58,917 nt of DNA from a virus (IMGVR_UViG_3300002307_000004:1-58917), one strand, 5' to 3'; numbered from the stretch's first letter, positions 10,691 to 39,005 are shown. A program made the numbers and translations. Notes: generated by a model from the letters alone, not told the origin.

Positions 10691-12055
10691 ATGACACACT
10701 ACAAGCATGAAGCAAAACAGGCTGCGCACGACAAAATGAAGCGCATGGGCCTTGATAAAGAGCATTCTGCAAAGAAACATTTTGATGACGTTCATCCCTA
10801 CGATGGTGTCCCCCAGTTGAGCACTGATACTCCATCCGGTCTTGCCCCTATAAGCAAGCAGCGGTTTAAGCACGGTGGCAAAGTCGCACATTTGGAAGGT
10901 AATAGAGCCAAGCAAAACTTGGGGAAAGCATCCCGTAGCAAAGCTCCCATCCCATATGAGCGCGATGAAGAATTGAAAAGCGGTGGTGTAGCCGCATTTA
11001 ACCCTCTCCTCCGCAAGAAACGCGCTGCCGCAATGGCTATGCGCAAAAAGCGTGAAGGCCTCCCATACGGTGCGCCAGCAGCCCCGGGTCCGTTTATGCC
11101 ATCCGGCATTATAGCCCCGCACAAAAAAGGTGGTGCAGTTCACCGTCACGAAGACGAAGCGGAAGATCGTAAATTGATCCGTAAGGAAGTTAAACCTTCC
11201 GCATTGAAACACCGCGCTCACAAAAATGACGGTGGTGGTTTGCGTTCAGAGCGTACCCAGTACGAAAAAGCTCGTCGTAATTCTGTTGACCAAGGCATGG
11301 ATTTGGGTACGGACAGCCAGCACACGCAGGATACGCTGACTAAAGCGGTTCGTAACTTTGAAAACACCGCCAAAGAAACTGGTTACTCAAACCTTAAACG
11401 CGGTGGTCGCGCCCATAAAGCGGGCGGTGGGCGTTTGGACGAAGTTAGACAAATGGTTGCTAACCCGTTAAAAAAACGCGCATTAGCAGATGACATCCGT
11501 CGAGTTACCCTTATGGCTGCTTCGCCAGAAGAACGCAAAAAATTTATTCAACAAAATAAACCAGAAAACAAAGTAAACCAATCGTTGACATCCAGCGAAT
11601 TGAAAAATGGTGGTCGCGCTCATCGCGCTACTGGCGGTAAAGTCGGAAGCGGCAAGGGTAAAACCAGCATTAACATTATAATTGCTCCCGAAGGCCAAAA
11701 GGGGGCATCCCAGATGCCAGCGGGCGGTCCTCCTGTTATCCCTCCGCAGTTGCTTGCCGCAATGGCTGGTGGTGCTGGTGGCCCTCCTCCGGGCGGTGGT
11801 GCTGGTGGCCCTCCTCCCGGCGCAATGCCTCCCGGTGCGGGTATGGCGGGTGCTGGCGGTGGTCTAGGTGCAGGCCCAGCTATGAACGTTGGTCGTCCCG
11901 GAATGACGGCCCCTACGCCTCCTATGCGTAAAGATGGCGGTCGTGTAGGCGGTAAAGCCCCACAGGCAGCAATGCCAACCCATCAAGAACACGATTATGG
12001 TTCCGGTTCGGGCCTCGGTCGTTTAGAAAAACGAAAGTGGCCTCTTGCTAAATAG
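10691..12055 (+). CDS. virion-associated basic protein with GG-(R/K)-x-H repeats and Gly/Pro-rich tail
   Basis: ATG 10691 after GGAG. Contains KHGGKVAH, KKGGAVHRH, KRGGRAHK, KNGGRAHR and KDGGRVGG, plus GGAGGPPPGGGAGGPPPG low complexity. Confidence 0.6.
   Translation: MTHYKHEAKQAAHDKMKRMGLDKEHSAKKHFDDVHPYDGVPQLSTDTPSGLAPISKQRFKHGGKVAHLEGNRAKQNLGKASRSKAPIPYERDEELKSGGVAAFNPLLRKKRAAAMAMRKKREGLPYGAPAAPGPFMPSGIIAPHKKGGAVHRHEDEAEDRKLIRKEVKPSALKHRAHKNDGGGLRSERTQYEKARRNSVDQGMDLGTDSQHTQDTLTKAVRNFENTAKETGYSNLKRGGRAHKAGGGRLDEVRQMVANPLKKRALADDIRRVTLMAASPEERKKFIQQNKPENKVNQSLTSSELKNGGRAHRATGGKVGSGKGKTSINIIIAPEGQKGASQMPAGGPPVIPPQLLAAMAGGAGGPPPGGGAGGPPPGAMPPGAGMAGAGGGLGAGPAMNVGRPGMTAPTPPMRKDGGRVGGKAPQAAMPTHQEHDYGSGSGLGRLEKRKWPLAK
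11768..11821 (+). repeat. 27-nt in-frame tandem duplication (GGAGGPPPG x2)
   Basis: ggtggtgctggtggccctcctccgggc repeated immediately with one mismatch. Confidence 0.9.
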
Positions 12056-12063
12056 GAGGTGAC

Positions 12064-12276
12064 GTGAATAGTTTTGACATACTGTTCTTCCGCAAGCTGC
12101 GGGAGAAATTAAACGAAGAAACCAAGACCCGTGCGGAATTCATCTTGAGCGGGTCTTATACCAACCTAGAGGACTACAAAGCTGCCGTCGGATATATGAA
12201 AGCAATTTCCGACACACTTATCTGGGCTAATGAGATTAACAACCAGTTAATCGGCGATACTAACAACGCGAGATAG
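12064..12276 (+). CDS. hypothetical protein (70 aa)
   Basis: GTG start 5 nt after AGGAGGTGA. Confidence 0.6.
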   Translation: MNSFDILFFRKLREKLNEETKTRAEFILSGSYTNLEDYKAAVGYMKAISDTLIWANEINNQLIGDTNNAR

Positions 12277-12282
12277 GAAAAA

Positions 12283-12675
12283 ATGACGTATATGACTATG
12301 GACCACGTGGACGATCCACGTGAAGAAATCCGAAACGCTATCGGCGACCTTTCTAAAGTGGAAATTTTTTTTAATTGGGTACTTGTAGCTGTTTACAAAC
12401 GTCCGGAACGTACCAAATCCGGGCTTTTTTTGACTGACGACACGCGCAAGGAAGACGAGTATCAGGGCAAAGCGGGCCTTGTTCTTAAAAAAGGCGTACA
12501 GGCCTTCGTCGATGACGCAAACACATCCTTCCAAGGGCAGAATGTAGACGTTGGTGATTGGGTTGTGATCCGTCCTTCGGATGGGTGGCAAGTCATGATC
12601 AACGGTGTGCTGTGCCGTATGGTGCAAGACGTGCAAGTTCGTATGCGTATTCCCGCACCCGATTCCGCTTTTTAA
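12283..12675 (+). CDS. GroES/Cpn10-like co-chaperonin (putative)
   Basis: 130 aa. NWVLVAVYKRPERTKSGLFLTDD ... GKAGLVLKKG ... VDVGDWVVIRP ... NGVLCRMVQDVQV follows the Cpn10 layout (V.V...KT.SG..L, G.V...G, VGD.V). Confidence 0.45.
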   Translation: MTYMTMDHVDDPREEIRNAIGDLSKVEIFFNWVLVAVYKRPERTKSGLFLTDDTRKEDEYQGKAGLVLKKGVQAFVDDANTSFQGQNVDVGDWVVIRPSDGWQVMINGVLCRMVQDVQVRMRIPAPDSAF

Positions 12676-12685
12676 TAGGTGACAT

Positions 12686-13630
12686 ATGGAAACCACTTCT
12701 AAAGAAGTCGTTATTGACGTAAAGCCACCATTGACGGAAGAAATTGATATCGGGGCAGATTCCCCCGCAAAACTTCCCGTAAGTGCGGTAGTCAAAGAAG
12801 AAGAATTGCCGAATAACTCTGCTGATGGCGGCATCGAACAGCTTAAACGCGAGTTGGAAGCCAAAAAACGCGAAGCGGATGAAATCCGCAGGCAAAAACA
12901 CGAAGCCGAACAAAATCTTTTTCAAAAAGAAACGGAAGTTCGCACGTATGCTTATCAGGCGGCGGATAACCAGTTAACAGCATTTACAAATGCCATTGCT
13001 TCTTATGAGCGTGATGGCGAAATGTTGGAAAACGAATACGCAAACAGGCTTGAACAGGGCGATTACCACGCTGCCGCCAAGTTACAGCGGCAAATGGCGC
13101 AAATTGAAAGCAAACTTTCGACTTTGCATCAAGGTCGCGAGGCTTTAGATGAACGTCTACAGTACGAACGAACACGCCCTGAGCCACAATACCAGCCCCC
13201 AACGTACGAACAAACCCAGTACGACCCCGTTGAAGCCGAATTGCAACGTCTTTCCGGCCCTTCACAGGCGTGGGTACGCAAAAATATTCACATTATGCAC
13301 GATCAAAAAAGCAAAAACCTTATGGCGGCTGCTCATTATCGTGCTGTCGCGGACAATTATCAGCCGGATACCCCCGAATATTTCAATTATCTTGAAAATG
13401 AATTGGGTTTGGTTGAGAAATCCGCGCCACAAAACACTCGTCAGCGCAATGTTGTTACGGCAGCACCTGTTGCACGAGGCGGAAGTGTTCCAACTATGAG
13501 TAATAATCAAGTTCGTATTACATTAACCCCCGAAATGCGGGCTTATGCGGACGAAGTATTGGGCATGAGTGACGAAGAGTACGCGGAAGCAATGCTTTAT
13601 TACAACAAAAAGGGTCAGTTAAAGCTATGA
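12686..13630 (+). CDS. scaffolding-like coiled-coil protein (putative)
   Basis: 314 aa, acidic and heptad-rich (LKRELEAKKREADEIRRQKHEAEQNLFQKE...). Lies between portal and capsid genes. Confidence 0.45.
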   Translation: METTSKEVVIDVKPPLTEEIDIGADSPAKLPVSAVVKEEELPNNSADGGIEQLKRELEAKKREADEIRRQKHEAEQNLFQKETEVRTYAYQAADNQLTAFTNAIASYERDGEMLENEYANRLEQGDYHAAAKLQRQMAQIESKLSTLHQGREALDERLQYERTRPEPQYQPPTYEQTQYDPVEAELQRLSGPSQAWVRKNIHIMHDQKSKNLMAAAHYRAVADNYQPDTPEYFNYLENELGLVEKSAPQNTRQRNVVTAAPVARGGSVPTMSNNQVRITLTPEMRAYADEVLGMSDEEYAEAMLYYNKKGQLKL

Positions 13631-14220
13631 GTGACATTAAACGCAAACCGGGTCGACCTCGGAAAGACGAAAATGTCCCAACCCAGCCCAATCATCAGTT
13701 AAATGAGGTAGACACCGTGGAAAACATGGAAATTGAAACCAAATCGGCCCCCGTAACACGCGGGATTCGTGAAGCAAACCTTCGTGCGGAGCAAATTCGG
13801 TCTCGTTCGCGCAATGAAGATTCGGATAAAACCGTTTATGACAAGTTTTACATCGATCCACGCGATATTCCGGATGGGTGGGACTACAATTGGAAGCGTT
13901 ATGAGACTATGGGCATGAAAGATGGCTCATATGAAGTCGAATTGGCGCAGACTGGTTGGGAAGCTGTTGATTCAGCGCGTCATCCTTCAATGATGCCCGC
14001 CAACCACAAGGGTCCAATTATCCGTGAAGGCATGATTTTGATGGAACGCCCTTCGGAAATCTCCAACCGCGCCAAATTTTTGGAATTGCAGGAAGCCCGC
14101 CGCGTTGTAAACGAAAAAGAACGCGCATTGGGCATGGCTCCTAGCGGCACTTTTGAACGCGACCAGCGTCGTCAGGTCGTTAAGAAAGAATATATCCCAA
14201 TGGAAATTCCTAAAGGTTGA
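13627..14220 (+). CDS. hypothetical head-module protein (197 aa)
   Basis: ATGA overlap with the previous gene. N-terminal KRKPGRPRK basic segment. Confidence 0.6.
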   Translation: MSDIKRKPGRPRKDENVPTQPNHQLNEVDTVENMEIETKSAPVTRGIREANLRAEQIRSRSRNEDSDKTVYDKFYIDPRDIPDGWDYNWKRYETMGMKDGSYEVELAQTGWEAVDSARHPSMMPANHKGPIIREGMILMERPSEISNRAKFLELQEARRVVNEKERALGMAPSGTFERDQRRQVVKKEYIPMEIPKG

Positions 14221-14252
14221 GATTAGTGTAATTTTTTCCTTTAACACACTTG

Positions 14253-14284
14253 CGCGATAAATATTCATCATGGTATTTATCGCG
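14253..14284 (+). promoter_or_regulatory. perfect 10-bp inverted repeat CGCGATAAAT-N12-ATTTATCGCG
   Basis: Located in the only large intergenic gap (158 nt) of the structural operon, just upstream of the decoration-like and capsid genes. Confidence 0.5.
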
Positions 14285-14293
14285 TATTCACTT

Positions 14294-14320
14294 CCGTTAC
14301 GCGCCGTAGCGGGCTTTTCT
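14294..14320 (+). terminator. terminator/attenuator-like hairpin CCGTTACG-CGC-CGTAGCGG then GCTTTTCT
   Basis: 8-bp stem with one G-U pair, followed by a short T-run. Sits between 13627..14220 and 14379..14987. Confidence 0.35.
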
Positions 14321-14378
14321 GACTGATCTTAATGTGCCGCGCTGGCAAAAGTAAGGTCATTCCAGACAGGAGCTACCT

Positions 14379-15000: not shown

Positions 15001-15915
15001 ATGGCTATTAATCTTAGTCAGATTCGTGACCTTCTCCTCCCCGGCCTCCGTGGCGTTGAAGGCAAATACACCCAGATTCCAAGCCAGTACGACAAGGTGT
15101 TCGAAATCACCAAGTCAAACATGGCTCTGGAACGCACCGCAGAAATGCGCTACCTCGGCCTCGCCGCTTTGAAGACTGAAGGTGGTAACACCCAGTTTGA
15201 TAACGCCGCTGGCGAACGTTATGTTTACAATCAGGAACATAACGAAATCGCTCTCGGTTACGCGATCACCCGTAAGGCTATCGACGATAACCTGTACAAA
15301 GCGCAATTCAAGCCAACTAACCTTGGCCTCGTGGAATCTTTCCATCAGACCAAAGAAATCTACGCCGCTAACGTTCTGAACACGGCTACGACCTACAATG
15401 CTGCAATCGGCGGCGACGGTGTGGCTCTTTGCTCTACTTCGCATCCTATTGATGGCACTACCATTGCCAACAAACCAACTGTTGACGTTGACCTCAACGA
15501 AGCAACCTTGTTGAACGGTATGGTCTCGATTCGTCAGAACTTCCGTGACATCGCTGGCATTAAAATCTTTGCTCGCGGTCGCAAACTGATTGTTCCTCCT
15601 TCTTTGGAACCAGTTGCTATCCGCTTGACCAAGACCCAGTTGCGTCCCGGTACAGCAGACAACGACGTGAACGCGATTCTCATGACCGCTGGCGGCTTGC
15701 CAGAAGGTTATATGGTCATGGACTTCTTGACTTCCAACTACGCATGGTTCCTCCTGACCAGCGTTAAGGGTCTGGTGTACATGGAACGCGTCCCCTTCGA
15801 AATGGATATGCAAGTCGATTTTACGACAGACAACCTGTTGGTAAAAGGCTACGAGCGTTATTCGGTCGGCTACTACAACTGGCGTTCGATCTACGGTTCA
15901 TTCCCAACCTCGTAA
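15001..15915 (+). CDS. major capsid protein (HK97-fold type)
   Basis: 304 aa. Position, size and sequence style (MAINLSQIRDLLLPGL...YDKVFEI...) are typical of podophage major capsid proteins. Confidence 0.75.
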   Translation: MAINLSQIRDLLLPGLRGVEGKYTQIPSQYDKVFEITKSNMALERTAEMRYLGLAALKTEGGNTQFDNAAGERYVYNQEHNEIALGYAITRKAIDDNLYKAQFKPTNLGLVESFHQTKEIYAANVLNTATTYNAAIGGDGVALCSTSHPIDGTTIANKPTVDVDLNEATLLNGMVSIRQNFRDIAGIKIFARGRKLIVPPSLEPVAIRLTKTQLRPGTADNDVNAILMTAGGLPEGYMVMDFLTSNYAWFLLTSVKGLVYMERVPFEMDMQVDFTTDNLLVKGYERYSVGYYNWRSIYGSFPTS

Positions 15916-17078: not shown

Positions 17079-17474
17079 ATGAAGGCTCATAAATCACACG
17101 GCATGCACCACGAACATCATGGTCATCATGAGCATGACATTCATGCGCATGTCAAAAAGCACTCGATGAAGCATCACCGCAAGGCTCACAAGCGCGGCGG
17201 CAAGGTGGCAGAAGGTCATGAAGTTCATGACGAAACCCCATCTGACGTGTACGCTGGTGCAAACTCCAATGTTGTTAAAGAAGCCGCTCACAAGAAGCGT
17301 GGCGGTGCACTGAAGCACAAGCATCTGGAAGCGCATGGTCACCATGCCAAACACCGCCTTGATCGTCCTGCGCGTAAGCATGGCGGCAAGGTAGGCTCGG
17401 ACATGAGTCCATTCTCTTCGGCTCATAACGTTAAGACCCCTGCTGGTCGCGACGTGGGTCCGGGGGAGTCCTGA
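17079..17474 (+). CDS. histidine-rich basic protein with three K-x-GG-K/A motifs
   Basis: 131 aa. MKAHKSHGMHHEHHGHHEHDIHAHVKKHSMKHHRKAHKRGGKV..., roughly one residue in five is His by eye. Confidence 0.65.
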   Translation: MKAHKSHGMHHEHHGHHEHDIHAHVKKHSMKHHRKAHKRGGKVAEGHEVHDETPSDVYAGANSNVVKEAAHKKRGGALKHKHLEAHGHHAKHRLDRPARKHGGKVGSDMSPFSSAHNVKTPAGRDVGPGES

Positions 17475-17503: not shown

Positions 17504-17680
17504 GTGAAGTGGATACAGGGCGCGATTAAACACCCCGGTGCCCTTCATAAACAGCTTCACGTTCCGGCGGGGGAAAAAATCCCCGCCAAGAAGCTAGATA
17601 AAGCGGCGCATAGCGACAACCCCTTGCTTGCGAAACGTGCCAATCTAGCCAAAACGTTGAAGAAGATGCACCATACGTAA
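17504..17680 (+). CDS. small conserved-looking basic protein (58 aa, below track cutoff)
   Basis: GTG start after GTGGGGG. Reads KWIQGAIKHPGALHKQLHVPAGEKIPAKKLDKAAHSDNPLLAKRANLAKTLKKMHHT and ends just before a terminator. Confidence 0.45.
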   Translation: MKWIQGAIKHPGALHKQLHVPAGEKIPAKKLDKAAHSDNPLLAKRANLAKTLKKMHHT

Positions 17681-17682
17681 AA

Positions 17683-17705
17683 GGGGGGCTAACGCCCCCT
17701 TTTTC
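17683..17705 (+). terminator. rho-independent terminator after the capsid cluster
   Basis: GGGGGC-TAAC-GCCCCC followed by TTTTT. Confidence 0.8.
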
Positions 17706-17719
17706 ATTTGGAGATTCGG

Positions 17720-17968
17720 ATGTCTACACCAGCTTGGCAACGATCAGAAGGAAAGAGCGAGTCCGGCGGATTGAACGCCAAAGGGCGCGAATCTTATCAT
17801 CATGAAACGGGCGGCACACTTAAAGCCCCCACCAAAGACACGCATAACTCACGGCATCATTCATTCTGTAGCCGGATGGAAGGGATGCGGTCTAAATTAA
17901 CCAATCACAAGAATGCGCATGATCCCGACAGCCGGATTAATAAAGCATTACGCAAATGGGGTTGCTAA
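17720..17968 (+). CDS. hypothetical protein (82 aa)
   Basis: ATG 17720 after GGAGA. MSTPAWQRSEGKSESGGLNAKGRESYHHETGGTLK...SFCSRMEGM... Confidence 0.55.
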   Translation: MSTPAWQRSEGKSESGGLNAKGRESYHHETGGTLKAPTKDTHNSRHHSFCSRMEGMRSKLTNHKNAHDPDSRINKALRKWGC

Positions 17969-18132
17969 TGGAAAAGAAACCATTTTGGGATCACCCACAG
18001 GAAAAAGATGCTCATCACAAGCATTTGACCGCAAAACAGAAATCAACCGCTAAAGCACATGCGCGAGCCGCTGGTAGACCATACCCAAATCTGGTAGACA
18101 ATGCAGCTATGGCTCGAAAGAAGGGTAAATAA
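17968..18132 (+). CDS. small basic protein (54 aa, below track cutoff)
   Basis: TAATG overlap with the previous gene. Reads MEKKPFWDHPQEKDAHHKHLTAKQKSTAKAHARAAGRPYPNLVDNAAMARKKGK. Confidence 0.45.
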   Translation: MEKKPFWDHPQEKDAHHKHLTAKQKSTAKAHARAAGRPYPNLVDNAAMARKKGK

Positions 18133-28490: not shown

Positions 28491-29795
28491 ATGGCGGACG
28501 ATACAAATTACTTGATGCGGCTACAAGATTTTTTGACGCATGTGTTGCAGTCAAATAGCCCATCCAAGTCACCTTCGCAGCCCCAGTCAAGCGGGAAGCC
28601 GCAGATTTCTGACACGTCGGGTAATGGCACACGGTCCGATACGTGGGGCAATCCTATGGGCGGTCTTTCCTCGTTTGAGTTATATCACCCAACCGTAACA
28701 GCGTCCGGAATTACTCCGGCAAACACTGCTTCTGCCATGCAGAATGAAGTGGACCGCATTCGTAAAATGCCTACGGGGCCACTGAAACAATCTACCCCGA
28801 CCACAAGCGGTCGCGTTTCTGCCCCCGCTCCAACGCAGGCTAAAACCCCGCAAAGCCCAAACATGTATTACATGGACCCCGGCGATGGCGGTCCTATGCG
28901 TTCTTTGGGCCGTTCATTGCCAAATGGCATGTCTGTCGGGCAGCAACAGGGCGGTGGATACATTTCCGCCGTTCCAATTCCGCAACCGACGACTGGCATG
29001 CAGAAATTTCTCCAAGCGGATTATTCGGGACAAAATCCTGTTGCAAGGCCGCAAGCCAATGTTCCAATGCCTCCGCCTCGTCCCGCCAACTTGGGCCAGC
29101 CAACTCCGCAGCCGCAGACTAGGACTGAAGCCCCTGCAAATAAAGATTACGGTGACCGTACCCCGCCACTTGCCAGACAACAGGCTTCGGCACCTGTTGA
29201 AGATAAAGGGTGGCGTGATTTAGCTTTGGCGAAAAACCAAGAGTTTTCGGATTTGGGGTTAAGTGGTGATAAAGCGGGTGGCAGAATTAACCATGCGCAC
29301 AAAATTGCTAAAGAGAAGGCAACCCCTTGCCACAGCGGTATTATCAACATGGCTGTTGGCGGTCGCACTGACCACATTCCAATGAACGTGCTTGAAGGTT
29401 CGTATGTCCTTCCTGCGGACATTGTTTCCGGTTTGGGTGAAGGCAATACTTTGGCTGGGTCAAAGATTCTGGACAACATGTTCCATTCTTCGCCGTATGC
29501 TACAAAAACACCGGACTTTAAAGCTAATCCTAAATTCCCTTCGGCTCCCCCGATGGGAGGGACTACTACAAACACGCCCGCTCGGGCTATGGGCGGTCGT
29601 TCTATGGCCCCTAAAAGCAAACCTGTTCCAATTGTTGCGGCTGGCGGTGAATACGTTGTTCACCCGGAAACCGTTACACAATTGGGAAAAGGTGATATGA
29701 ATGCGGGGCACGAGTATCTTGATAACTTCGTCAAGTATGTTCGCGCCCATACCGCCAAGACGCTGCAAAATCTACCCGGCCCTCGGAAAGACTAA
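28491..29795 (+). CDS. internal virion/ejection protein (putative), Pro/Gln-rich (434 aa)
   Basis: Position after the nozzle gene. Low-complexity PQ-rich N-half. Contains GGR motifs (AVGGRTDH, AMGGRSM). Confidence 0.5.
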   Translation: MADDTNYLMRLQDFLTHVLQSNSPSKSPSQPQSSGKPQISDTSGNGTRSDTWGNPMGGLSSFELYHPTVTASGITPANTASAMQNEVDRIRKMPTGPLKQSTPTTSGRVSAPAPTQAKTPQSPNMYYMDPGDGGPMRSLGRSLPNGMSVGQQQGGGYISAVPIPQPTTGMQKFLQADYSGQNPVARPQANVPMPPPRPANLGQPTPQPQTRTEAPANKDYGDRTPPLARQQASAPVEDKGWRDLALAKNQEFSDLGLSGDKAGGRINHAHKIAKEKATPCHSGIINMAVGGRTDHIPMNVLEGSYVLPADIVSGLGEGNTLAGSKILDNMFHSSPYATKTPDFKANPKFPSAPPMGGTTTNTPARAMGGRSMAPKSKPVPIVAAGGEYVVHPETVTQLGKGDMNAGHEYLDNFVKYVRAHTAKTLQNLPGPRKD

Positions 29796-29810: not shown

Positions 29811-30272
29811 ATGGAATACGACGTTCAGCTTGCCACCCTACCTATGGCGGAAGAAATAACTGACGTTTTGCTTGAAGGCCGCGATGAGGGGTTCGTATTC
29901 CCCCCTGATCGGGAAATTGTGCTTGAGTTCGTAAAAGACATTATGAACAAAAATGGCGGTTTGCTTGGCGTTATTGTCGGCGAAAGCGGAATAGAAGGCA
30001 TTATTGGCGTTAAACTAGACAAATTCTGGTTTTCTGATCAATGGTATCTTTTTGATTTGTTTACGTTTGTCCACCCCGAATTTCGGCGTTCAACCCGCGC
30101 AAAGTGCTTGCTTGCGTTTGCAAAAAAGTGCGCAAAAGAAATGCAGCTTCCATTGGTAATGGGCATCATGTCCAACATTCGCACGGAAGCAAAATCCCGG
30201 TTGTACGAGCGTCAGTTTGACCGTGCCGGGAACTACTTTGTTTACAATAAAGAAAGTGCTGGAGTGGTATAA
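29811..30272 (+). CDS. GNAT-like acetyltransferase (putative)
   Basis: 153 aa. FTFVHPEFRRSTRAKCLLAFAKKCAKEMQLPL resembles GNAT motif A in context. ATGA-type overlap with the 1365-aa gene. Confidence 0.4.
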   Translation: MEYDVQLATLPMAEEITDVLLEGRDEGFVFPPDREIVLEFVKDIMNKNGGLLGVIVGESGIEGIIGVKLDKFWFSDQWYLFDLFTFVHPEFRRSTRAKCLLAFAKKCAKEMQLPLVMGIMSNIRTEAKSRLYERQFDRAGNYFVYNKESAGVV

Positions 30273-33200
30273 TGGGTGGCAGCAGCGGTTCATCTACATC
30301 GACTTATAGCCCGCCGCCCGAAGTAGCGGCGGCGTATAAACAGTTATTGAGCAACGCTCAACCGTTGTTCACGGCCCCGTATCAGCCATATACCGCTGGT
30401 AAAGCCGAAACCGCGTCTGAAATGGTTCCGCTTACCGTTGCCCCGCAGACCCCTAACCAAGTAGCTGCTGGTCAAAATATCGCGTCTCTAGCGGGGTATT
30501 ACCAGCCATACGCTAATGCTGCTACTGACCTTGTCCAACAGGGTTCGCAACCTATCCAGTTGCAGCAGTTTAACAACCAATCCGTTGGGCAGTATATGTC
30601 CCCGTTCATGCAGAACGTTATGGGATCAACTGTCGCCAACATCAACGAAACCAACGCACAGCAACAGCAACAGGTGCTGGGCAACGCTATAGCCAAAGGG
30701 GCGTACGGCGGTGACCGTGCGGGCATTGCGCAGTCCGAATTGGCTCGTCAACAGAACCTTGCGAACAACGCAACCCTCGCGAACATTGCTAACACTGGGT
30801 ACAACTCCGCGTTGGGCCAGTTTAACGCGATGAACCAGCAAGGTATACAGGCGCAGTTGGGTAGCGGGCAGTTGGCTCAATCTGGCGCGTCAGCACTGGG
30901 TAACTTGGGCACTATGGGCCAGAATGCCGCTTTGCAACAGGCACAAGCCCAATACAACATTGGCGGGGCGCAGCAGCAGCAGAAACAGGCGGAGCTGTCT
31001 ACCGCTTACCAGAACTACTTGAACCAGATTGCGTACCCGTATCAACAGGCGCAATTTGAAGGTGGTCTTATATCCGGCGTTGCATCTGGCTCCGGCGGGA
31101 CAACCACGTCTACTCCAGCCCAGCCCGGTGCCGCAAACCAAATCATTGGTGGTTTGGGTGCGCTTGGCTCTCTTGGCAGTTTGTTTGGCGGTGGCGGCGG
31201 TGCCGCTGGTGCCGCTGGTGCCGCTGGTGCTGGCGGGTTCGGCAGTTTCTTGGGTGGCATTGGTAGTGGCGTTGGTGCCGCCGCAAGCGGCATTGGGGAG
31301 GGATTAGGCGCAGTTATTTCTGCTATTCCTTTTCTCTCCGATGAGCGGGCAAAAGAAAATATTCATCCGGTAGGCAAAACTTTTGACGGGCAAAATATTT
31401 ACAAATTTAACTACAAGGGTGACCGCGCTACTCAGATTGGTTTGATGGCGCAAGAAGTTGAACACCACCACCCTTCCGCAGTGGGCGAATGGCATGGTTT
31501 GAAGACCGTCAACTATGATGCTGCAACAAAAGGCGCGGAACACCGTGGGCACTTTGCGCAAGGCGGCGATGTGCAACAGCAGCAAGGTTTGCTGGGCGTC
31601 AGCCCAATTGCTGGCATGACGGCATCTTCGTATTTGCCAACTGGGCAAAACGCAATGGCAAACCCACATATGCCGCAAGCCCCAACGGGCAAGCATCCAA
31701 ATGATTTTTCAAAAGATCAATTGTCAGATGCCGTAAAAGGCATTCGCACGTTGATGGGCAAGCCGGACCCTTCAGCTAAACCGGATGCCAAAACTGATTC
31801 TCCCCCGCCAGTCCAGCCAATCTCGCCTATCCAGCAAGATGCGTTTGGCGGACGCATTCATCATTACGGGGTTGGCGGCGTTGCTGATGCCACTCCTGAC
31901 GTAAAATCTGCTGCTGCATCTCCCGCCCACTCTGATTCGTTTGATGCTTTGAAAGCATCGCAACAGAAGTATACGCAAACGCTACCAAATGCCGGAGTTA
32001 TTCCAGCACCCCAAACATCAACAGGTGTTACGGGCGGCGCAACCAACGGCACTCCCATAGACTCTAATGCTCAAGCGTTGCATAATCCCGGGTTGGCGCG
32101 AAGCAATTACAGCAATTTGGCAAACAGCGGGAATGCGTCTCTCGCGGACCTTCAAAGCGCGTACGATATCTATATGCGTTCGCATGCTACGCCAGAAGCC
32201 ATTACGCAAGTTCAAATGGGGTCTGGGACACCAACTACGACCGAAGTGGCGTCTTCCGACAACTTTCTCAGCTCCGGCCCCGAAGGTGGCGGGGGTGGCG
32301 GCAACAATGCTTACGGGGGTCGCATTCACCCGCATCATTTTGGTGCTGGCGGCGGCATTTTAAATTATTCCGGGTTGCCCACTAAAAAAACAGTGGAAGA
32401 AGGGGCGCAAAGTGTTATTGGGTCCGGCGCAAGTTATGATCCCACACTGGCGTCCATTGCATCGCAAGATTACTTGCCCGAAGAAAAAGCTGCTCGTGGC
32501 GGCGTGATTGGTCGCGAGCATCATGCTGGCCCAGATGACACTAACGGTCAGAGCAACGTTGTGGGTAACGGTCCAACGCCTGACGAGGTCATTACGCAGG
32601 CTCTTCCTCGCATTAAACAGTTGGAAAGCGGCGGGAAGAACATCCCCAACGCAAGTGGTTCAGCCGCATACGGGCCATACCAGTTTATGCCCAATACTTT
32701 TTCGGGGACCGCACAACGCCATCCGGAATCAGGAGTTGATCCAAACGATCACAAAAACCCCGAAGCGCAAGAAAAACTTGCTCCATTCCACGCCCGTGAT
32801 CTTGCGGAAGCCTACAAAAAAGCAAACCTTCCGTTTGACAACAACGCGTTGCGCATGGGTTGGGCATTTGGTGAACAAGGTGGTCCCGCATTCATGAAGG
32901 GTGCTGCCGCTGATCCCAATGCCCCATCGACAAGTCTTGCTGGTCAAGCCGCCATTAAAGCCAACCCGTCATGGTTCTTTAACCCAGATGGTTCAACCAA
33001 AACTGCGGCTCAGACAATTTCGTTCCTTACGGGCGGCATGAACGGGGCGGCACCACGTGCATCTGCCCCTCAAAGCCAGTCACAGGGGCAGGAACAGCCG
33101 CGCCAAGGCCCAATGCAACTTAACCAAACGGCTACCAAAGAAGGTTTGTCTGGCATGCTGGGCATTTCCATGACAGATAACCAGCGTCTGGCGGCGTTCA

Positions 33201-34369
33201 ATGCGTTTGCAAAACTCGCTGGCACACCCGGCAAGTTTGGGGTTGGCTTGGCTGCTGCCGCAGATACGTATTCCAAAACACTTATGGAAGCAAACAAACA
33301 GCAGCGTGAAGGTTATACCGCCGAAAGCGAAGCAAAACTCCGCGCTGAACAGGCTACATCGCAGCGCGTCAAACAGGAAGGCATGACCACGCAAGTACGT
33401 AAAACCGACCCTGTTACTGGTGCCGTTACTGTTGAAAACCAAATTATCCCTCCCGGACAAACAGCAACGTTTGCTGGGCAGGGCCAAACTGGCTCTGGGT
33501 CTTCCACTGCAACAGGTGCACCTTCGGCCCCGTCTTCCCCTCAAACCCCAAAAGAAATTAACTTGCTTGGGCCTGTTGCTGCGGGCGAAGACGGCACGGC
33601 AAAATTTGATACGTTGCAAAAACTTGCGGATGAAGCACTTAAAACTTATTCCGCCACTCCGGGAGAAGCCCAAAAAATGTATTTTAGCAAATCCGCCGAA
33701 TTGTATGAAAATCAAAAAGCCGCAAACGCATCACGTCCGGATTTGAAATCAGCAATTCAGTCGGTTTCGGAAATGGGTGGCGGCGGCTTAACGGGTGCTG
33801 GCCCGGGGTCTGAATACCGTACGGCAATTGCAAATTACATCAACCTTGGATTGCGCAGTTTTGGTGTCGAAGGCGGGATCAACGAACGCGATATCGCGAA
33901 CAAGCAAGTTCTCGATAAACTTGCAACTATTCAAGCCAACCAAGCTCACGGCAGTAATGCAGCCCGGTGGCTGGATAGCGTTAAAAACGCTTACCCCCAA
34001 ACCGAATTGACCGAACAAGCCGCTAAAAATTTGACTGCATCTTTGATGGTTACCAATACCATGCACAATGATATGGGTAATTTTGCAAACGAGTACGGCA
34101 AAAGAACCTACGGTATGGGGTACAACGTTACGCAGGCGTTCAACCAAGTTAATCCCGCCAATCTTTATTCTCAAGCGAAAGATGATATCGCTCGTTTGAT
34201 GATTGAAAGAAATGGAACAATTCCTACAAAAGACGGTCGTTCTGTTCGCGGAAATCCAGTTTCGGCACTTGCGATGGGAGTTATGACCCCAGAAGAATTT
34301 AACGACTACGCACGGCGCAATGGTTCTAAAATTTCCAATTTGGCCCGGTTTGTAACTGGCGGGGAGTAA
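30272..34369 (+). CDS. giant ejection protein: Gln/Gly-rich N-region, internal S74 chaperone domain, lytic transglycosylase domain
   Basis: 1365 aa. LSDERAKENIHPVG...IGLMAQEVEHHHPSAV...KTVNYD at aa ~355-425. LESGGKNIPNASGSAAYGPYQFMPNTF is an SLT-type catalytic Glu-Ser plus Q.MP..motif at aa ~785. Contains GGRIH repeats. Confidence 0.75.
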   Translation: MGGSSGSSTSTYSPPPEVAAAYKQLLSNAQPLFTAPYQPYTAGKAETASEMVPLTVAPQTPNQVAAGQNIASLAGYYQPYANAATDLVQQGSQPIQLQQFNNQSVGQYMSPFMQNVMGSTVANINETNAQQQQQVLGNAIAKGAYGGDRAGIAQSELARQQNLANNATLANIANTGYNSALGQFNAMNQQGIQAQLGSGQLAQSGASALGNLGTMGQNAALQQAQAQYNIGGAQQQQKQAELSTAYQNYLNQIAYPYQQAQFEGGLISGVASGSGGTTTSTPAQPGAANQIIGGLGALGSLGSLFGGGGGAAGAAGAAGAGGFGSFLGGIGSGVGAAASGIGEGLGAVISAIPFLSDERAKENIHPVGKTFDGQNIYKFNYKGDRATQIGLMAQEVEHHHPSAVGEWHGLKTVNYDAATKGAEHRGHFAQGGDVQQQQGLLGVSPIAGMTASSYLPTGQNAMANPHMPQAPTGKHPNDFSKDQLSDAVKGIRTLMGKPDPSAKPDAKTDSPPPVQPISPIQQDAFGGRIHHYGVGGVADATPDVKSAAASPAHSDSFDALKASQQKYTQTLPNAGVIPAPQTSTGVTGGATNGTPIDSNAQALHNPGLARSNYSNLANSGNASLADLQSAYDIYMRSHATPEAITQVQMGSGTPTTTEVASSDNFLSSGPEGGGGGGNNAYGGRIHPHHFGAGGGILNYSGLPTKKTVEEGAQSVIGSGASYDPTLASIASQDYLPEEKAARGGVIGREHHAGPDDTNGQSNVVGNGPTPDEVITQALPRIKQLESGGKNIPNASGSAAYGPYQFMPNTFSGTAQRHPESGVDPNDHKNPEAQEKLAPFHARDLAEAYKKANLPFDNNALRMGWAFGEQGGPAFMKGAAADPNAPSTSLAGQAAIKANPSWFFNPDGSTKTAAQTISFLTGGMNGAAPRASAPQSQSQGQEQPRQGPMQLNQTATKEGLSGMLGISMTDNQRLAAFNAFAKLAGTPGKFGVGLAAAADTYSKTLMEANKQQREGYTAESEAKLRAEQATSQRVKQEGMTTQVRKTDPVTGAVTVENQIIPPGQTATFAGQGQTGSGSSTATGAPSAPSSPQTPKEINLLGPVAAGEDGTAKFDTLQKLADEALKTYSATPGEAQKMYFSKSAELYENQKAANASRPDLKSAIQSVSEMGGGGLTGAGPGSEYRTAIANYINLGLRSFGVEGGINERDIANKQVLDKLATIQANQAHGSNAARWLDSVKNAYPQTELTEQAAKNLTASLMVTNTMHNDMGNFANEYGKRTYGMGYNVTQAFNQVNPANLYSQAKDDIARLMIERNGTIPTKDGRSVRGNPVSALAMGVMTPEEFNDYARRNGSKISNLARFVTGGE
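31199..31225 (+). repeat. 9-nt in-frame microsatellite (GGTGCCGCT)x3
   Basis: ggtgccgct is repeated three times exactly, encoding (GAA)x3 within a Gly-rich segment. Confidence 0.9.
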
Positions 34370-34370
34370 T

Positions 34371-37300
34371 ATGGCTGACCAATTTGACGCTGATGCCGTT
34401 TTTGGAAAACCAAGCAACCCCCAACCGCAAGGCGGGGGGCAGGGCATGCCGTCCGGAAAGCCGTCTGGCTCCATAGACCCTGACGCTATATTTGGTAAGC
34501 CGGGCCAACCATCTCCGGGGTCTGGCAAGCCATCCTCTTCCGATGATCAAGAATACGAATCAAAAGTTCGATCTTTGATGCCAAAGGCCCGCGAGTTTAT
34601 TTCGAAAGACGGCGATGTGCTTTCTAAAGGTACACCCGGAGCATTTGTGGAAGGCGTGGGCAAAGTTGGGGAATGGACAGGCTTGCGCACCGCTACTCGT
34701 GGCGCGATGGCGGCTTTAGGGTCTGGAGAAGGCAAGAACTTTTCCGAACGCTACAACCAGTTAAAAGCCGAAGACGAGGCTGTCGCACGTGCGTATGAAG
34801 AAAAGCATGCTATCGCAAAAGGTGCGGGGGAACTGGCTGGCGTTGTCGGGACAACCCTACTGGCCCCCCAAACATTGGCTATTTCCGGACCCGTAGAAGC
34901 TGCGGCACTTGCGCGTGGGGTTGGTCCTACAGCCGCTAAGGTAGCGGGAATGGGTGCGGAAGGTGCTGCGTGGGGCGCGGGTACTGCCGCTGGAGAAAAA
35001 GCGTTTGGGACAAAAAGTGAACATGATGAACCGGGGATTATAAACTCCGCTTTGGTTGGCGGTGCGGGCGGTGCTGGCCTTGGCTTTATTGGCAAAGGTG
35101 TGTCATCTGCTTATGGGAATTACGCCCCAGAATGGATCAAGGGCGCGTTAAGCAAAGATTACCAGACCAAAACGTTTACCCAAAAGTGGATGGATGACAT
35201 AGCGAATGGGTCCGCCAAAATGGATATGGCGGAATACAAAAAAGCCCTTGATAATGGTCAGCCAGTTAGTTTGCTAGATGTTGGCGGGGATTCCACGCAA
35301 GAGTGGCTTCGCAAGGCGTTTAAAGGCCGTGGACAGGCATTGGACGAGTTCCAACTAAAAGCATCCCAACGGCTTGAAGGCGAAGGTGAACGGTTTGATG
35401 CGTTCCTGCAAAAGTATGCGGGAACTGACGGGTCCATTAACCAAGACCAAATTCGGCAAGCCGCAAAAGACTACGCCGAAAAAATTAATGACACGAATTA
35501 CCAACGTGCTGCATGGCGACCCGAAAACGGTAAAGGGTCATGGAAAGACAGTTGGATGACTCATTTTGACGATCCCGATGTTGCGGGAGCGTTTGGTGAT
35601 GCTGTTTCTACAATGAAACGCAAATATGGCGACGAATTTACAAGCCCTTTGTCCGCTGCGGGAGAAGCCCCTATTGACAGCCTTCTTGGCAAAGGGTTGG
35701 ATAAAAAAGCAGTCCAACAATTAAAAAATGCAGGCATTGAAACAGTAGGCGATATAGCGGGCAAAACAGAAGCGGAATTGCTTGAAGCCATTTCTGTTTC
35801 CCCAAAATCTGACAGCCATCAAGCGCAAACTGCTGCAAAGCGGCAAACGCAAAAACTTGCTGATTCCGTTATGTCCGCCACCAAGGGCATTGATCCCGAA
35901 GCGGGGGTTATAAACCCAGAACTTGTTAACGTGGAGTTTTTGGATCGTTGGCAACGCGCATTGAACTACCGTGCCGAATCTCTCGCCAAAAATCGTCCAG
36001 AACTAAACATGGACTTTGTCAAACGCTTACAGGATTTGCGCGGAGACATTGTTGGCTCTTTAAAGAACCCAAAAAGTTCGTTGTACAACGAGGCTTTTGA
36101 TACTGCGCACACGCAAGCGGCGCAGTTTCATCGTGAAAATGATGCTTTTTCGGCAGGGCAGGAACTTTTGCGCAGGCTTTCAAATGGGGAAAAAGCTTCC
36201 GAAATTGCGAATACTACTGCTGGCATGACCGCTCAGGAAAAAGAATTTTTCACCAAAGGCATTTTGGGCCAGATGGTGGAGCAAGGTTTACAGGGCGGAA
36301 GCGACGGGCGCGGCATTAAATACCAGACATTGAAGAACTGGCTGTCCAATCCGCACGTCAACACCGCTATGAACAACACTTTGGGTGAAGCCCAATTTAC
36401 TAATCTTCGGGCATTTTTAAAAGCCGAAGTTGCAATGGGGGACGCCGCTAGAATCGCGAATACATACGGCAAGACCAACACGGATTACCGTGGGTTTCTC
36501 CCGTATATGCTTTTTGGCGGGCTTGAACATTACTTGACATCTCTTGGTGGGTTTGTGTCTCCGTTCGCAATGGCTGCTTATCAGGCGGCGGATTATTATG
36601 CGGGTCGAAAGTTTGCGACATCTCTTGCCGAAAAGATGATGACCCAAGACCCAAAAATGATTGAAGAAGCTATAGATTCAATTCAAAAAAATCCCAAAAT
36701 GTCCGCGTATTTTTCGCAAGTATTGGGGAAGGCTTTGCCCTCTATGGTTGGTGCCATGTCCGGAAGCCCACCTGTTCAACGCCACGCTGCTGGTGGTGCT
36801 GTCCACATGCAGGATGGCGGCGTACCGCCTCGTGAATTGGACGAGAGAGGCATGTACAGCGAAGGTGCGGAGACTGCCCGCAGAATCCTGCCTAGAACCC
36901 AAGGAAGCGGCCCAGAGTTCATTCAACGCTTGCTAGGCAAGGGTGTAAGGCCTGATGAACTGCACCATACCCGTATTGGCGGCATTCCTCTTCGTCATAT
37001 GGGTACGGGCGAATTGCATCCAGCGGTACAAGGCCAGATTGGCGGTCACGAACTGGCTGACTTGATTCACAATAATGCGCCAAAAATGGAACGCATCAAT
37101 CGGAATGACTGGTCTAGAGATTACAAACCAACATACACATCTCGTAGTTTGAAATTAAACGCCGCTAAAGATTATTCGGAATTAAACGTTGCAAAGCAAA
37201 CAAACCCTAACCAAGAAGTTTTTTCACCGCCCGCGAAGGACTTTACTGTCATTCCGCAACTCACGGGTTTTTCAGCATATGCGCGTCAAAATGCAAAAAA

Positions 37301-39005
37301 CGTTTCAAATTCAACTTTTATGCCAATAGATGATTTGAGCGAAAGATATTCTTCAATTTGGGACAACCAAAAAAATAGGGGTATAGGAACCTATGGGAGA
37401 ACTCATGATCGATTTGGGAATTATCAAGGGTTAATACCCGTTGATGAAGACATTAATAGCGAAAATTTTGCGGAAAAACGCCCGGCTTTACAACAGGCCG
37501 CTCAAAAAGTTGCGTTGAATAAATTTAAGAAAAACGTTATTCCAACAATGGAACATTTTACGGATGTTCCAAATTTGGCGTATCATGCGCGTATGTCGGA
37601 TATCCCTCTTCAAAAAAACGGGAAAACCGTTAGCAATTTAAATATTGAAGAAGCGCAATCGGATGCGGCGCGACGCTATGACAGAAGCCAGCGCGGTAAT
37701 AAAAATACACCAAATATCATAGGGTATGATCCCGCAACGCACAAAAAAATGTATGAGGAAGCGGCTGCGGCGCAGGAACGCCTTCGTGCTTCCGATGAGC
37801 CTTTTTACAAAACAGGAATAGATCATAAAATTATAGATGATTATGATGCTTATTTACAGAAACTATCGGGCGGGAACGATGCCGTTCCGGATGTCCCTTA
37901 CATTGAATCAAATAAGTCATGGCAACGTGCGTTGGCAAAAGACGTTCTTCGCAAAGCCGCATCGAGTGGGTACGAAAGCATTACCGTCACCCCGTGGGAA
38001 GAACAAGTTCGCCGCGCCAGACACTCTGTACCCGTTGATAAACTTATGATTTCATCGATACCCGCATTTAGACATGGGTCTAACAGCCCGGAAACATTTG
38101 CAATTTCCGGTTATCCAATCAACATGCAAATGGATGATTTAAAGAAAATTTACGGGGATCGTATAGAAACGCTTATCCGTAATCATATTCCGGAAGGTCA
38201 ACGCGGTCATGCCGTTATTCCAAGTGATCCGTACGGGAAAAAACCATTTTACGCGTTTTTGCCTGACGAAGAAGACATTGATTCAGACGATAGTGATGAA
38301 GTTGAAAATTTTATCGCTAAAGCTATTGATGGCGGCAAAGCAACGCGCCGGAAGGCAGAGGTTCATAATGCTTTTATTAAACAATTGCAAAACGTCATTA
38401 ATGAAGAACATGACCCGCATTTCAAAATTGATTACTCCCATAGTGATAAACACGAACATCCGGATCATTTGTTTGAAGGTTCTGACAGCAGTAAATTGGT
38501 TGCGCCGGGAGCTTTCCTGTCTCCAGAACTGCGTGACAGCATCTTTAAAAAAGGTTTTAAGCGGTTTAAAAAGGGCGGTTACGTCACGGACAACCTGACG
38601 CATCCCATCAACCCCGCAAAAGGGTATGCTTTTGGGGGTTCCGCCAACCAAATGCGTATGGTGAACAAGTCCATCCATATGCCTAAGCCGGGTGACGAAG
38701 ATTTTGTTGGGCCGACAATGAGTACTTCGTCATACGACCCCAACAAATCGGGTGCGTTTGACAAGTTAAACATGTTCGGGGAACGCAACATCCATTGGAC
38801 CCCTGATCTGGGCCATGCTGCATCGCGTGGGTATCGAGTTGATAAGACTGGGCGCACTATGCGGTCTACTGGCGGTCGTATCCCAGATGCTGACAAACTG
38901 TTTAAGTCTGCTAAGAAATACGTAGACAGCCATACCAAACATCTTCTAGATGTTCCCGATGACGCTATTGTTAAAGCACTCCGTGTAGCACAGAAAAAGG
39001 TTTAA
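34371..39005 (+). CDS. giant virion/ejection protein of unknown function (1544 aa)
   Basis: Starts 2 nt after the previous stop. Has a helix-hairpin-helix-like KAVQQLKNAGIETVGDIAGKTEAELLEAI segment and GG motifs (AAGGAVHMQDGG, KKGGYV, STGGRIPD). The central part is AT-richer and Asn/Lys-rich. Confidence 0.7.
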   Translation: MADQFDADAVFGKPSNPQPQGGGQGMPSGKPSGSIDPDAIFGKPGQPSPGSGKPSSSDDQEYESKVRSLMPKAREFISKDGDVLSKGTPGAFVEGVGKVGEWTGLRTATRGAMAALGSGEGKNFSERYNQLKAEDEAVARAYEEKHAIAKGAGELAGVVGTTLLAPQTLAISGPVEAAALARGVGPTAAKVAGMGAEGAAWGAGTAAGEKAFGTKSEHDEPGIINSALVGGAGGAGLGFIGKGVSSAYGNYAPEWIKGALSKDYQTKTFTQKWMDDIANGSAKMDMAEYKKALDNGQPVSLLDVGGDSTQEWLRKAFKGRGQALDEFQLKASQRLEGEGERFDAFLQKYAGTDGSINQDQIRQAAKDYAEKINDTNYQRAAWRPENGKGSWKDSWMTHFDDPDVAGAFGDAVSTMKRKYGDEFTSPLSAAGEAPIDSLLGKGLDKKAVQQLKNAGIETVGDIAGKTEAELLEAISVSPKSDSHQAQTAAKRQTQKLADSVMSATKGIDPEAGVINPELVNVEFLDRWQRALNYRAESLAKNRPELNMDFVKRLQDLRGDIVGSLKNPKSSLYNEAFDTAHTQAAQFHRENDAFSAGQELLRRLSNGEKASEIANTTAGMTAQEKEFFTKGILGQMVEQGLQGGSDGRGIKYQTLKNWLSNPHVNTAMNNTLGEAQFTNLRAFLKAEVAMGDAARIANTYGKTNTDYRGFLPYMLFGGLEHYLTSLGGFVSPFAMAAYQAADYYAGRKFATSLAEKMMTQDPKMIEEAIDSIQKNPKMSAYFSQVLGKALPSMVGAMSGSPPVQRHAAGGAVHMQDGGVPPRELDERGMYSEGAETARRILPRTQGSGPEFIQRLLGKGVRPDELHHTRIGGIPLRHMGTGELHPAVQGQIGGHELADLIHNNAPKMERINRNDWSRDYKPTYTSRSLKLNAAKDYSELNVAKQTNPNQEVFSPPAKDFTVIPQLTGFSAYARQNAKNVSNSTFMPIDDLSERYSSIWDNQKNRGIGTYGRTHDRFGNYQGLIPVDEDINSENFAEKRPALQQAAQKVALNKFKKNVIPTMEHFTDVPNLAYHARMSDIPLQKNGKTVSNLNIEEAQSDAARRYDRSQRGNKNTPNIIGYDPATHKKMYEEAAAAQERLRASDEPFYKTGIDHKIIDDYDAYLQKLSGGNDAVPDVPYIESNKSWQRALAKDVLRKAASSGYESITVTPWEEQVRRARHSVPVDKLMISSIPAFRHGSNSPETFAISGYPINMQMDDLKKIYGDRIETLIRNHIPEGQRGHAVIPSDPYGKKPFYAFLPDEEDIDSDDSDEVENFIAKAIDGGKATRRKAEVHNAFIKQLQNVINEEHDPHFKIDYSHSDKHEHPDHLFEGSDSSKLVAPGAFLSPELRDSIFKKGFKRFKKGGYVTDNLTHPINPAKGYAFGGSANQMRMVNKSIHMPKPGDEDFVGPTMSTSSYDPNKSGAFDKLNMFGERNIHWTPDLGHAASRGYRVDKTGRTMRSTGGRIPDADKLFKSAKKYVDSHTKHLLDVPDDAIVKALRVAQKKV

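Follow-up and report, generated by a model that had tools for sequence, protein, structure and literature searches.

The 58.9-kb window analyzed here (IMGVR_UViG_3300002307_000004, the whole stretch of 58,917 nucleotides) is a phage genome with its virion genes in a long plus-strand block, and it raises the question of why one short glycine-based peptide should recur in proteins of this block that are otherwise unrelated. A preliminary description had reported a basic x-GG-(R/K/A)-(V/I/A)-H motif about 18 times over five proteins, here termed A to E. It had offered an encapsidation or docking signal, a maturation cleavage site, or a metal/DNA contact as possible roles. Judged from sequence comparisons, it is a genuine, conserved short linear motif, apparently undescribed, whose carriers in a large clade of uncultured aquatic phages are putative head-internal, ejected and cargo proteins. 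The function of the motif is best read as that of a multivalent tether that would load or hold non-shell proteins in the capsid, a reading to which a probability of roughly 0.4 is given. Among the three roles offered previously, docking or encapsidation thus fits best; a DNA or metal contact fits A and B, not the flanks in D and E, and cleavage is disfavored.

All 16 strings of the preliminary description are present in the translations of the five genes (Table 1). Enrichment was evaluated with 2000 per-protein residue shuffles, and the rest of the crude proteome (~14,500 residues) served as background. For GG[RKA][VIA], the five proteins have 16 matches where 2.32 ± 1.48 would be expected, and none of the 2000 shuffles reached 16. 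The forms requiring a downstream histidine (GG[RKA][VIA].{0,4}H) or an upstream basic residue ([KR].GG[RKA][VIA]) were both found 9 times, with 0.28 and 0.24 expected, respectively. The rest of the proteome was at background for the three patterns (5 vs 3.8, 0 vs 0.23 for the histidine form and 0 vs 0.28 for the basic form), which bears out the earlier remark that terminase, portal, capsid, tail fibre and early proteins are devoid of the motif. Most of the enrichment originates from A (7 vs 0.47) and B (2 vs 0.09). In the shuffles C, D and E are weak one by one, with p = 0.13, 0.07 and 0.03. As the search pattern was framed after inspection of the data and these three proteins are individually weak, conservation in homologues is the decisive test. 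The positions are kept across hundreds of homologues, which rescues C, D and E. A DNA-level repeat was rejected, since codon usage differs from copy to copy; the feature thus acts at the protein level.

Taken more widely, the consensus reads Φ-[K/R/A]-x-G-G-[R/K/S/A]-[V/I/A/L], and in many copies His, Gly or Lys comes next, or a second GG eight residues on. The logo of the A family has R/F/K/M/L at position −3, K (62%) at −2, R/K/S/T at −1, the GG pair, R/K at +2, V/A at +3, H/K/G at +4 and a second GG at +8/+9. The residue before GG is R in 22% and K in 20% of cases, and the residue after GG is R in 47% and K in 32%. There seem to be two flavors with Φ-x-x-GG-x-Φ in common: a basic one (class I, e.g. 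FKRGGKVAH) in A, B, C and the E tail, and an aromatic/His-rich, neutral-to-acidic one (class II, e.g. AFGGRIHHYGVGG) in the D linker, the E junction and polyvalent proteins. The flanks of the motif consist of 70–80% disorder-promoting residues. The histidine that had been included in the original definition is over-represented behind the motif (in the A family 20% at +4; also at +5) without being obligatory.

The list of copies had to be amended. AVGGRTDH in protein C (29349–29372, plus strand) was rejected, as its counterpart in the alignment is (V)AGRTDHxPM, part of a folded domain that is conserved while the GG is not, and AMGGRSM, seen in close relatives only, is doubtful. Three copies had been overlooked: KAGGRINHAHK (C, residue 263), HFAQGGDV (D, residue 431) and YAFGGSAN (E, residue 1422). 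The view that only non-shell virion proteins share the motif held up, as the copies occupy conserved positions in disordered segments and are absent from shell, tail-fibre and packaging proteins. Literature searches on such a motif, on capsid-targeting signals and on disordered ejection proteins returned nothing relevant.

Protein A is the multi-copy carrier of the motif. It has a net charge of +39 and is mostly disordered. The AlphaFold2 model built on the family alignment has a mean pLDDT (predicted local distance difference test) of 54.9 and a pTM (predicted template modelling score) of 0.19, with the copies in low-confidence coil (pLDDT about 40–55) between short helices, most of them just ahead of one. 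Related loci were fetched through the portal and D proteins, giving a set of 46 metagenomic loci, in which every post-portal A homologue has 3–7 copies, even where the portals are just 37–49% identical. At least 220 family members, with 2–10 copies each and no Pfam domain or informative name, were obtained by database search. An exhaustive hidden Markov model search yielded 979 clusters (50% identity) at E ≤ 1e-10, the members of which carry 2–15 copies. The family has no match in Pfam, PHROG or NCBIfam, none was confirmed in 185,579 reference genomes, and the sequences of A, C and E have no significant match in the PDB.

In an alignment of 72 A sequences, the GG pairs and the C-terminal GSGSGLGRLEKRKWP account for the majority of the invariant columns (individual residues in Table 1). 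Among 126 diverse representatives, with 3–15 copies each, the last copy lies a median of 33 residues from the C-terminus (interquartile range 32–37), and GxG[RK]xEK is present in 101. In the A of the window, the last copy stands about 38 residues before the C-terminus, behind a Gly/Pro-rich spacer. Pairs of GG eight residues apart (GG-x6-GG) number 205 in the family, with 17 expected, a 12-fold excess.

Across the 46 loci, a strict pattern was found 39 times in A (0.5 expected), 9 times in B (0.1), 3 times in E (0.2) and 22 times in unassigned E-like or A-like proteins (2.8). It was found 0 times, with about 3 expected, in portal, large terminase, capsid, tail fibre, 671- and 233-residue virion proteins, GroES-like and other families. 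Besides the carriers, it occurs only in the 314-residue scaffold-like family, where APVARGGSVP was rejected as a copy; the conserved part is APVxR and distant homologues lose the GG. Matches in GNAT homologues (RSAKGGRAKKLADFAK and similar) were likewise discarded as the loop that binds the pyrophosphate of acetyl-CoA.

The phage has no close relative in GenBank, the sole DNA-level match being one stretch of 830 bp with 75% identity. Relatives recognized by their portal are distant (28–48% identity): MW202675 (an uncultured freshwater phage), HTVC027P and HTVC023P (Pelagibacter), CRP-901 and CRP-902 (Roseobacter), RW (Caulobacter) and the lake phage DSL-LC04. The portal and adaptor of close relatives match the Pfam families SU10_portal and SU10_adaptor. 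On portal sequence, the clade of motif-bearing uncultured aquatic phages is a distant kin of the cultured podoviruses of the HTVC023P/027P type. In MW202675 (locus L047:5316-12813), the closest annotated relative, three large proteins are encoded between the portal and the A homologue, and each bears the motif: one combines GNAT, Peptidase_M15 and ART-PolyVal, one contains InPase, and one of 847 residues has no Pfam match. Two of the three are polyvalent effector proteins sensu Iyer et al. 2017. The post-portal position of the window phage is occupied by A alone. The motif is also found in gp41, gp42 and gp47 of HTVC027P and in small proteins of DSL-LC04. It is absent from Caulobacter RW, CRP-902 and SU10, including the internal proteins of the latter, and from gp14, gp15 and gp16 of T7. 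Two small basic ejected virion proteins of T7 (L053, 18864–19834) end in motif-like basic GG sequences, gp6.7 in ...RKSAFGGKK and gp7.3 in ...KKARAGGKKSLSVARSSGGGINI, which may be a coincidence or a distant parallel and is statistically not meaningful.

The three copies of B are all kept in the three homologues found, and this protein, conserved in the closest relatives only, may be a metal-binding head protein. In the C family (roughly 190 amino acids), GG is found at one position, in sequences such as KAxGGx[IM] and GMKRGGKIKVH.

Protein D is a fusion of modules that are separate genes in SU10. Its N-terminus is a Q/N-rich ejection-protein module (phrog_4287, DNA ejection protein) resembling the separate gp21 and gp22 of SU10. 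A Peptidase_S74 module follows, of the self-cleaving intramolecular chaperone type, with the SDERAKEN cleavage motif (S-D-x-R-x-K-x-N) conserved in D homologues. It stands in mid-protein (residues 356–404 of 1365) and not, as in fibres or spikes, at the very C-terminus. A linker of ~340 residues comes next, then a weak match to SLT that stays below the cutoff (E = 0.0012), and then another ~400 residues. This architecture implies autoproteolytic splitting of a predicted ejection polyprotein. S74, phrog_4287 and phrog_6121 (D N-terminus and S74 region) and the weak SLT match are all that the carriers returned from Pfam, PHROGs and NCBIfam.

The copies of D are in the linker. HFAxGG stands behind the S74 module in nearly all D homologues that have this module, followed by a variable number of [FY]AxGGx[VIL] copies, the last of which is [FY]AxGGLVxR(S/E)HHxxGD throughout the clade. 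Identity in the linker is 81–93% in the motif columns vs 65–76% in the remainder. About 20 residues past the last copy, the wall-degrading module (32580–33140, residues ~770–955) is replaced by unrelated sequence in the D homologue of another locus (L023, 5941–10086), which is otherwise about 65–95% identical upstream of the swapped segment. Directly after this segment, a 40-residue block beginning with TKEGLSGMLGISMTDNQRLAAFNAF is 100% conserved.

In E, a cargo insertion begins right after HAAGGAV and ends at FKKGGYV...YAFGG; the homologue from locus L020, which lacks it, has HAAGGPVQKYAFGG there. The insertion has no recognizable domain (no match in Pfam) and a single homologue among 5.8 billion proteins, designated P0005 (74% identity). 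An AlphaFold2 model on the resulting two-sequence alignment was unusable (pLDDT 34). The insertion may be a novel injected effector. Upstream of the GG junction, the P0005 protein and the E of the window share about 27% identity, as opposed to 75–100% downstream, and the switch at the DNA level falls in the GG codons. At this junction, P0005 has a tandem array, GGRADGGAVHMNEGGVVHMQDGG, with units 6–8 residues apart. Farther on, at least 12 divergent E-like proteins have [RK]xxGG[RS][VIA] some 45 residues before their C-terminus, with a conserved segment ...TEQMLSLPDDAIVQAL behind it; the C-terminal copy is retained in relatives too diverged for BLAST linkage. The last 130 residues of E used as a query gave 4 close matches only and were uninformative. 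In the N-terminal body of E, residues 439–479 (35685–35810) match weakly a helix-hairpin-helix or the C-terminal domain of the RNA polymerase alpha subunit (E = 0.0076), a possible sign that this last ejection protein has a DNA-binding element.

Table 1 Carriers of the motif, their copies and neighboring genes in the window (aa, amino acids; ORF, open reading frame; invariance refers to the 72-sequence alignment of A)
Feature	Position	Strand	Remarks
Small and large terminase	6252–8484	+	
Portal	8488–10632	+	
Protein A	10661–12055 (database copy from 10691)	+	Basic, 464 aa, post-portal
A copy 1, FKHGGKVA	10865–10888	+	RFKRGGKVAH in the family; G62, G63, K64 invariant
A copy, LKSGGVAA	10973–10996	+	G98 invariant, G99 nearly invariant
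A copy, HKKGGAVH(RHEDE)	11120–11143	+	G147, G148 nearly invariant; conserved acidic helix next
A double copy, LKRGGRAHKAGGGRL	11393–11437	+	GG-x6-GG unit
A double copy, LKNGGRAHRATGGKVG	11600–11647	+	R309, G315, G316 invariant, R312 nearly; TSINIII strand next
A last copy, MRKDGGRVGGKA	11927–11962	+	G416, G417 invariant; R418, V419 nearly invariant
A C-terminal conserved peptide, DYGSGSGLGRLEKRKWPLAK	11993–12052	+	Invariant or nearly invariant
70-aa ORF, GroES-like protein, 314-, 197- and 202-aa proteins		+	After A, in this order
Capsid protein	15001–15915	+	HK97-type, 304 aa; phrog_371, Mu-like_gpT/Phage_capsid_4
377-aa protein		+	Between capsid gene and B
Protein B	17079–17474	+	131 aa, basic, 20% His (MKAHKSHGMHHEHHGHHEHDIHAH...), net charge +10
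B copy, HKRGGKVA	17187–17210	+	
B copy, KKRGGALK	17292–17315	+	
B copy, RKHGGKVG	17373–17396	+	
Small ORFs, adaptor, tail and fibre genes		+	Downstream of B
Protein C	28491–29795	+	Ejection module
C copy, DKAGGRIN(HAHK)	29268–29291	+	GG kept here across the C family
GNAT protein	29811–30272	+	Ejection module
Protein D	30272–34369	+	Ejection module, 1365 aa
Peptidase_S74 module of D	31337–31483	+	Pfam PF13884, E = 1.6e-7, 31.9 bits vs cutoff 22
D linker	31553–32512	+	Four motif sites
D site, HFAQGGDV	31553–31576	+	
D site, DAFGGRIHHYGVGGV	31838–31888	+	
D site, NAYGGRIHPHHFGAGGG	32306–32362	+	
D site, AARGGVIGREHHA	32489–32512	+	
Protein E	34371–39005	+	Ejection module
E junction double copy, HAAGGAVHMQDGGV	36783–36830	+	Upstream boundary of insertion and recombination breakpoint
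E cargo insertion	36807–38612	+	603 residues; missing from 88%-identical L020 homologue
Downstream boundary of insertion	38565–38648	+	FKKGGYV, 38565–38588; YAFGGSAN, 38625–38648
E C-terminal copy, RSTGGRIP, and conserved helical segment ending ...DVPDDAIVKALRVAQKKV	38862–39002	+	Copy at 38862–38885
Fibre and lysis genes			After E, in the virion block

Some neighboring genes deserve mention. Between A and the scaffold-like protein (12064–12675), the 70-residue ORF and the GroES/Cpn10-like protein (Pfam E = 3.5e-4, at the cutoff) form a pair that is syntenic in HTVC027P, Caulobacter RW, DSL-LC04, CRP-902 and MW202675. The small-ORF cluster after B (17504–18132) includes a protein with an N-terminus resembling the Fusellovirus VP2 family (E = 1.2e-5) and another that consists of a DUF6321 domain on its own (E = 2.6e-20), to which the C-termini of many larger PHROG families are similar. 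The GNAT acetyltransferase gene embedded between C and D keeps this position in 25 related loci.

If the motif is a multivalent tether, it would act as a 'sticker' that binds a common partner in the procapsid, such as the scaffold, the portal, the inner capsid surface, the packaged DNA or itself, and this binding would load and retain the ejection proteins and the enzymatic cargo. Protein A, with 2–15 copies in its family, would be the multivalent hub. The clients would be the proteins with 1–5 copies, namely C, D, E and the polyvalent cargo proteins of the relatives. As the motif is located in flexible joints, cargo modules could be inserted or exchanged there without loss of loading.

This reading is favored because the motif is non-random and restricted to one class of proteins, because its positions are conserved under divergence (the GG columns and last copy of A, the C-terminal copy of E), and because the copies sit in a disordered context. 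The valency looks like that of a hub and its clients, and relatives bear the motif in cargo proteins encoded beside the portal gene. Module joints, namely those of the 603-residue insertion and of the P0005 switch, fall exactly on the GG codons of copies. Finally, the layout of A, B and E, a body followed by a Gly/Pro spacer, the motif and a conserved tail of 30–45 residues, resembles that of tethered terminal docking peptides.

Several points weigh against the tether. The presumed internal location of the carriers is suggested by gene order and weak homology (phrog_4287, and the likeness of the D N-terminus to gp21/gp22 of SU10). Flanks with a strong basic character occur in A, B, C and the E tail, those of D and of the E junction being aromatic/His-rich and either neutral or acidic; there may be two related motifs with different partners. 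Each copy of A has its own conserved flanks, unlike interchangeable stickers. Portal relatives devoid of the motif (Caulobacter RW, CRP-902, SU10) load internal proteins without it, and any flexible linker would be expected to host module junctions.

A farther-reaching proposal is that the motif is a portable, sequence-defined capsid-loading tag, such that any module joined through a motif-bearing linker would be loaded into the head and injected. This is possible and must be considered tentative. If true, phages of the clade would exchange their injected effectors through recombination right at the tag, and a dedicated multivalent disordered hub, the A family, would organize the internal protein mass.

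Alternatively, the motif could contact the DNA phosphate backbone, a metal, or both. The GG amides and Arg/Lys side chains would make up an anion-binding nest and in this way grip the packaged DNA, the neighboring His (Cys in some relatives) would bind a divalent metal, A and B would be protamine-like condensers, and the ejection proteins would be attached to the DNA through single copies and leave with it. The net charges of A (+39) and B (+10, with 20% His) are in keeping with this, as is the resemblance of [RK]-GG-[RK] to RGG boxes. The same regular expression catches the acetyl-CoA pyrophosphate-binding loop of the neighboring GNAT family (RSAKGGRAKK), so a sequence of this type can bind phosphate. 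The enrichment of His at +4/+5, the clade-wide GGxxxR(E/S)HHxxGD at the last D copy and a CxCxxCGG adjoining a copy in some A homologues would suit a metal site. However, the flanks of the copies in D and the E junction have net charges of −3 to 0, and binding to the backbone does not require the hydrophobic anchors conserved at −3 and +3. Moreover, in assembly of the P22 or T7 type the ejection proteins enter the procapsid ahead of the DNA, so that DNA binding could not explain loading. A contact with DNA or metal is therefore considered unlikely as the general role.

Maturation cleavage at or after GG would cut A into small basic peptides, free the modules of D and E and remove C-terminal targeting tails. 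The motif has the length of a protease site with defined positions on either side of GG, and it lies at module boundaries; D joins modules that are separate in SU10 and already possesses the self-cleaving S74, and A, B and E each have a copy 30–45 residues before the C-terminus. Yet the absence of a recognizable prohead protease, noted in the preliminary description, persisted in searches of Pfam, PHROGs and NCBIfam, which found none beyond the S74 of D. HExxH is present in no ORF, and the conserved head-module proteins of 197, 202 and 314 residues display no convincing invariant catalytic set, nor did their profiles match anything significant in the PDB. The capsid protein of 304 residues is too short for a delta domain, as in the protease-free style of P22 and T7. 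Cleavage of the tandem units 6–8 residues apart, as in GGRADGGAVHMNEGGVVHMQDGG or the 205 GG-x6-GG pairs, would release pointless peptides of 6–8 residues, and the hydrophobic residue is at P5, vs P4 for adenain. Owing to the tandem arrays, the lack of a protease and the short capsid protein, cleavage is improbable.

A purely structural role, as a hinge or helix cap with no specific partner in which GG would close one helix and open the next element, is another reading. Here the motif would be kept solely for the flexible joints that these proteins need to pass the portal and the tail channel, and recombination at such a joint would be tolerated. This would account for the short helix that follows most A copies in the AlphaFold2 model, for the conserved C-terminal segment behind the E tail copy and for breakpoints falling in joints. 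It leaves unexplained the conserved hydrophobic residue at −3, the basic residues at −2 and +2, the V/I/A at +3 and the 8-residue periodicity, and other multidomain virion proteins (the tail fibre, the 671-residue protein) do without the motif. It is held to be as improbable as cleavage. Last, binding of a host periplasmic or envelope component after ejection, much as colicins use the Tol/Ton boxes of their disordered translocation domains, would suit a motif of glycine-rich disordered segments in predicted ejected proteins, next to the cell-wall-degrading modules in D, but appears very improbable given that the highest copy numbers are in A and B, both head-module genes, and that the motif is conserved across phages with probably very different hosts (freshwater lineages, the Pelagibacter phage HTVC027P).

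Cargo selection for head-internal injected proteins is known chiefly from the capsid-targeting sequence (CTS) of T4 and the Dar hierarchy of P1, and to our knowledge no rule is available for most podoviruses. If the motif has a loading role, it would provide a testable rule based on one simple, conserved, multi-copy peptide, explain how effector modules are swapped between phages without loss of delivery, and offer a tag for packing foreign proteins into capsids. Whatever the function, the unannotated A family, with about 1,000 clusters at 50% identity, appears to be a widespread uncharacterized component of aquatic phage virions.

Several known systems invite comparison. Polyvalent proteins, or MuF-associated cargo, are phage effectors of several domains whose genes neighbor that of the portal and for which packaging and injection are predicted (Iyer et al. 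2017, PMC5512222). In that paper, a search by terms turned up no mention of linkers, glycine or low-complexity, nor any passage on a common linker or loading motif. Relatives of the window phage carry ART-PolyVal, InPase and PcfJ modules beside the portal, whereas A to E have no Pfam domain of polyvalent proteins. The sites of the adenovirus protease in core and cement proteins, (M/I/L)XGG-X and (M/I/L)XGX-G, also place a GG motif in several internal, partly very basic, DNA-associated virion proteins. Here, however, the hydrophobic residue is at −3 from the first G (P5) with K at P4 (62%), no gene for a clan CE or other protease was found, and the 8-residue tandem spacing is implausible for cleavage. 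AT-hooks were rejected, as the copies have no G-R-P core. RGG/RG boxes are similar in their repeated Arg/Gly-Gly units, aromatic/His neighbors and occurrence in disordered, basic, multivalent proteins, which would fit a scaffold/client layout. They differ from the present motif, which has hydrophobic anchors and position-specific flanks and belongs to phage virion proteins.

By analogy, the motif would be functionally closest to the CTS of T4 or to the cargo-loading peptides of encapsulins, yet it departs from them in position, consensus and protease dependence. In T4, the CTS is one N-terminal peptide, about 10 residues long, which the gp21 prohead protease cuts off at LxE and which can be transferred to foreign cargo. 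As in IPI-III and Alt of T4, a short peptide is common here to unrelated proteins that would be packed in the head and injected. In contrast to the CTS, the copies are internal or 30–45 residues from the C-terminus, multiple in A, B and D, and based on GG, and a prohead protease was not found in the head module by the searches described above. Encapsulin peptides are short, contain Gly and, at the end of a flexible Gly/Pro/Ala tether near the C-terminus, dock the cargo in the lumen of a shell with the HK97 fold. Protein A has a comparable succession of a G/P spacer, RKxGGRV and GSGSGLGRLEK, as B and E have in part, yet many copies are internal. The encapsulin consensus is GSL or LxIGSLK-like, usually with one copy per cargo. 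The capsid protein of the window is HK97-like, as is the encapsulin shell, and lumenal docking is here putative. Should the motif be a loading tag, phages would have in it an equivalent of cargo loading in encapsulins, or else of a scaffold/client condensate.

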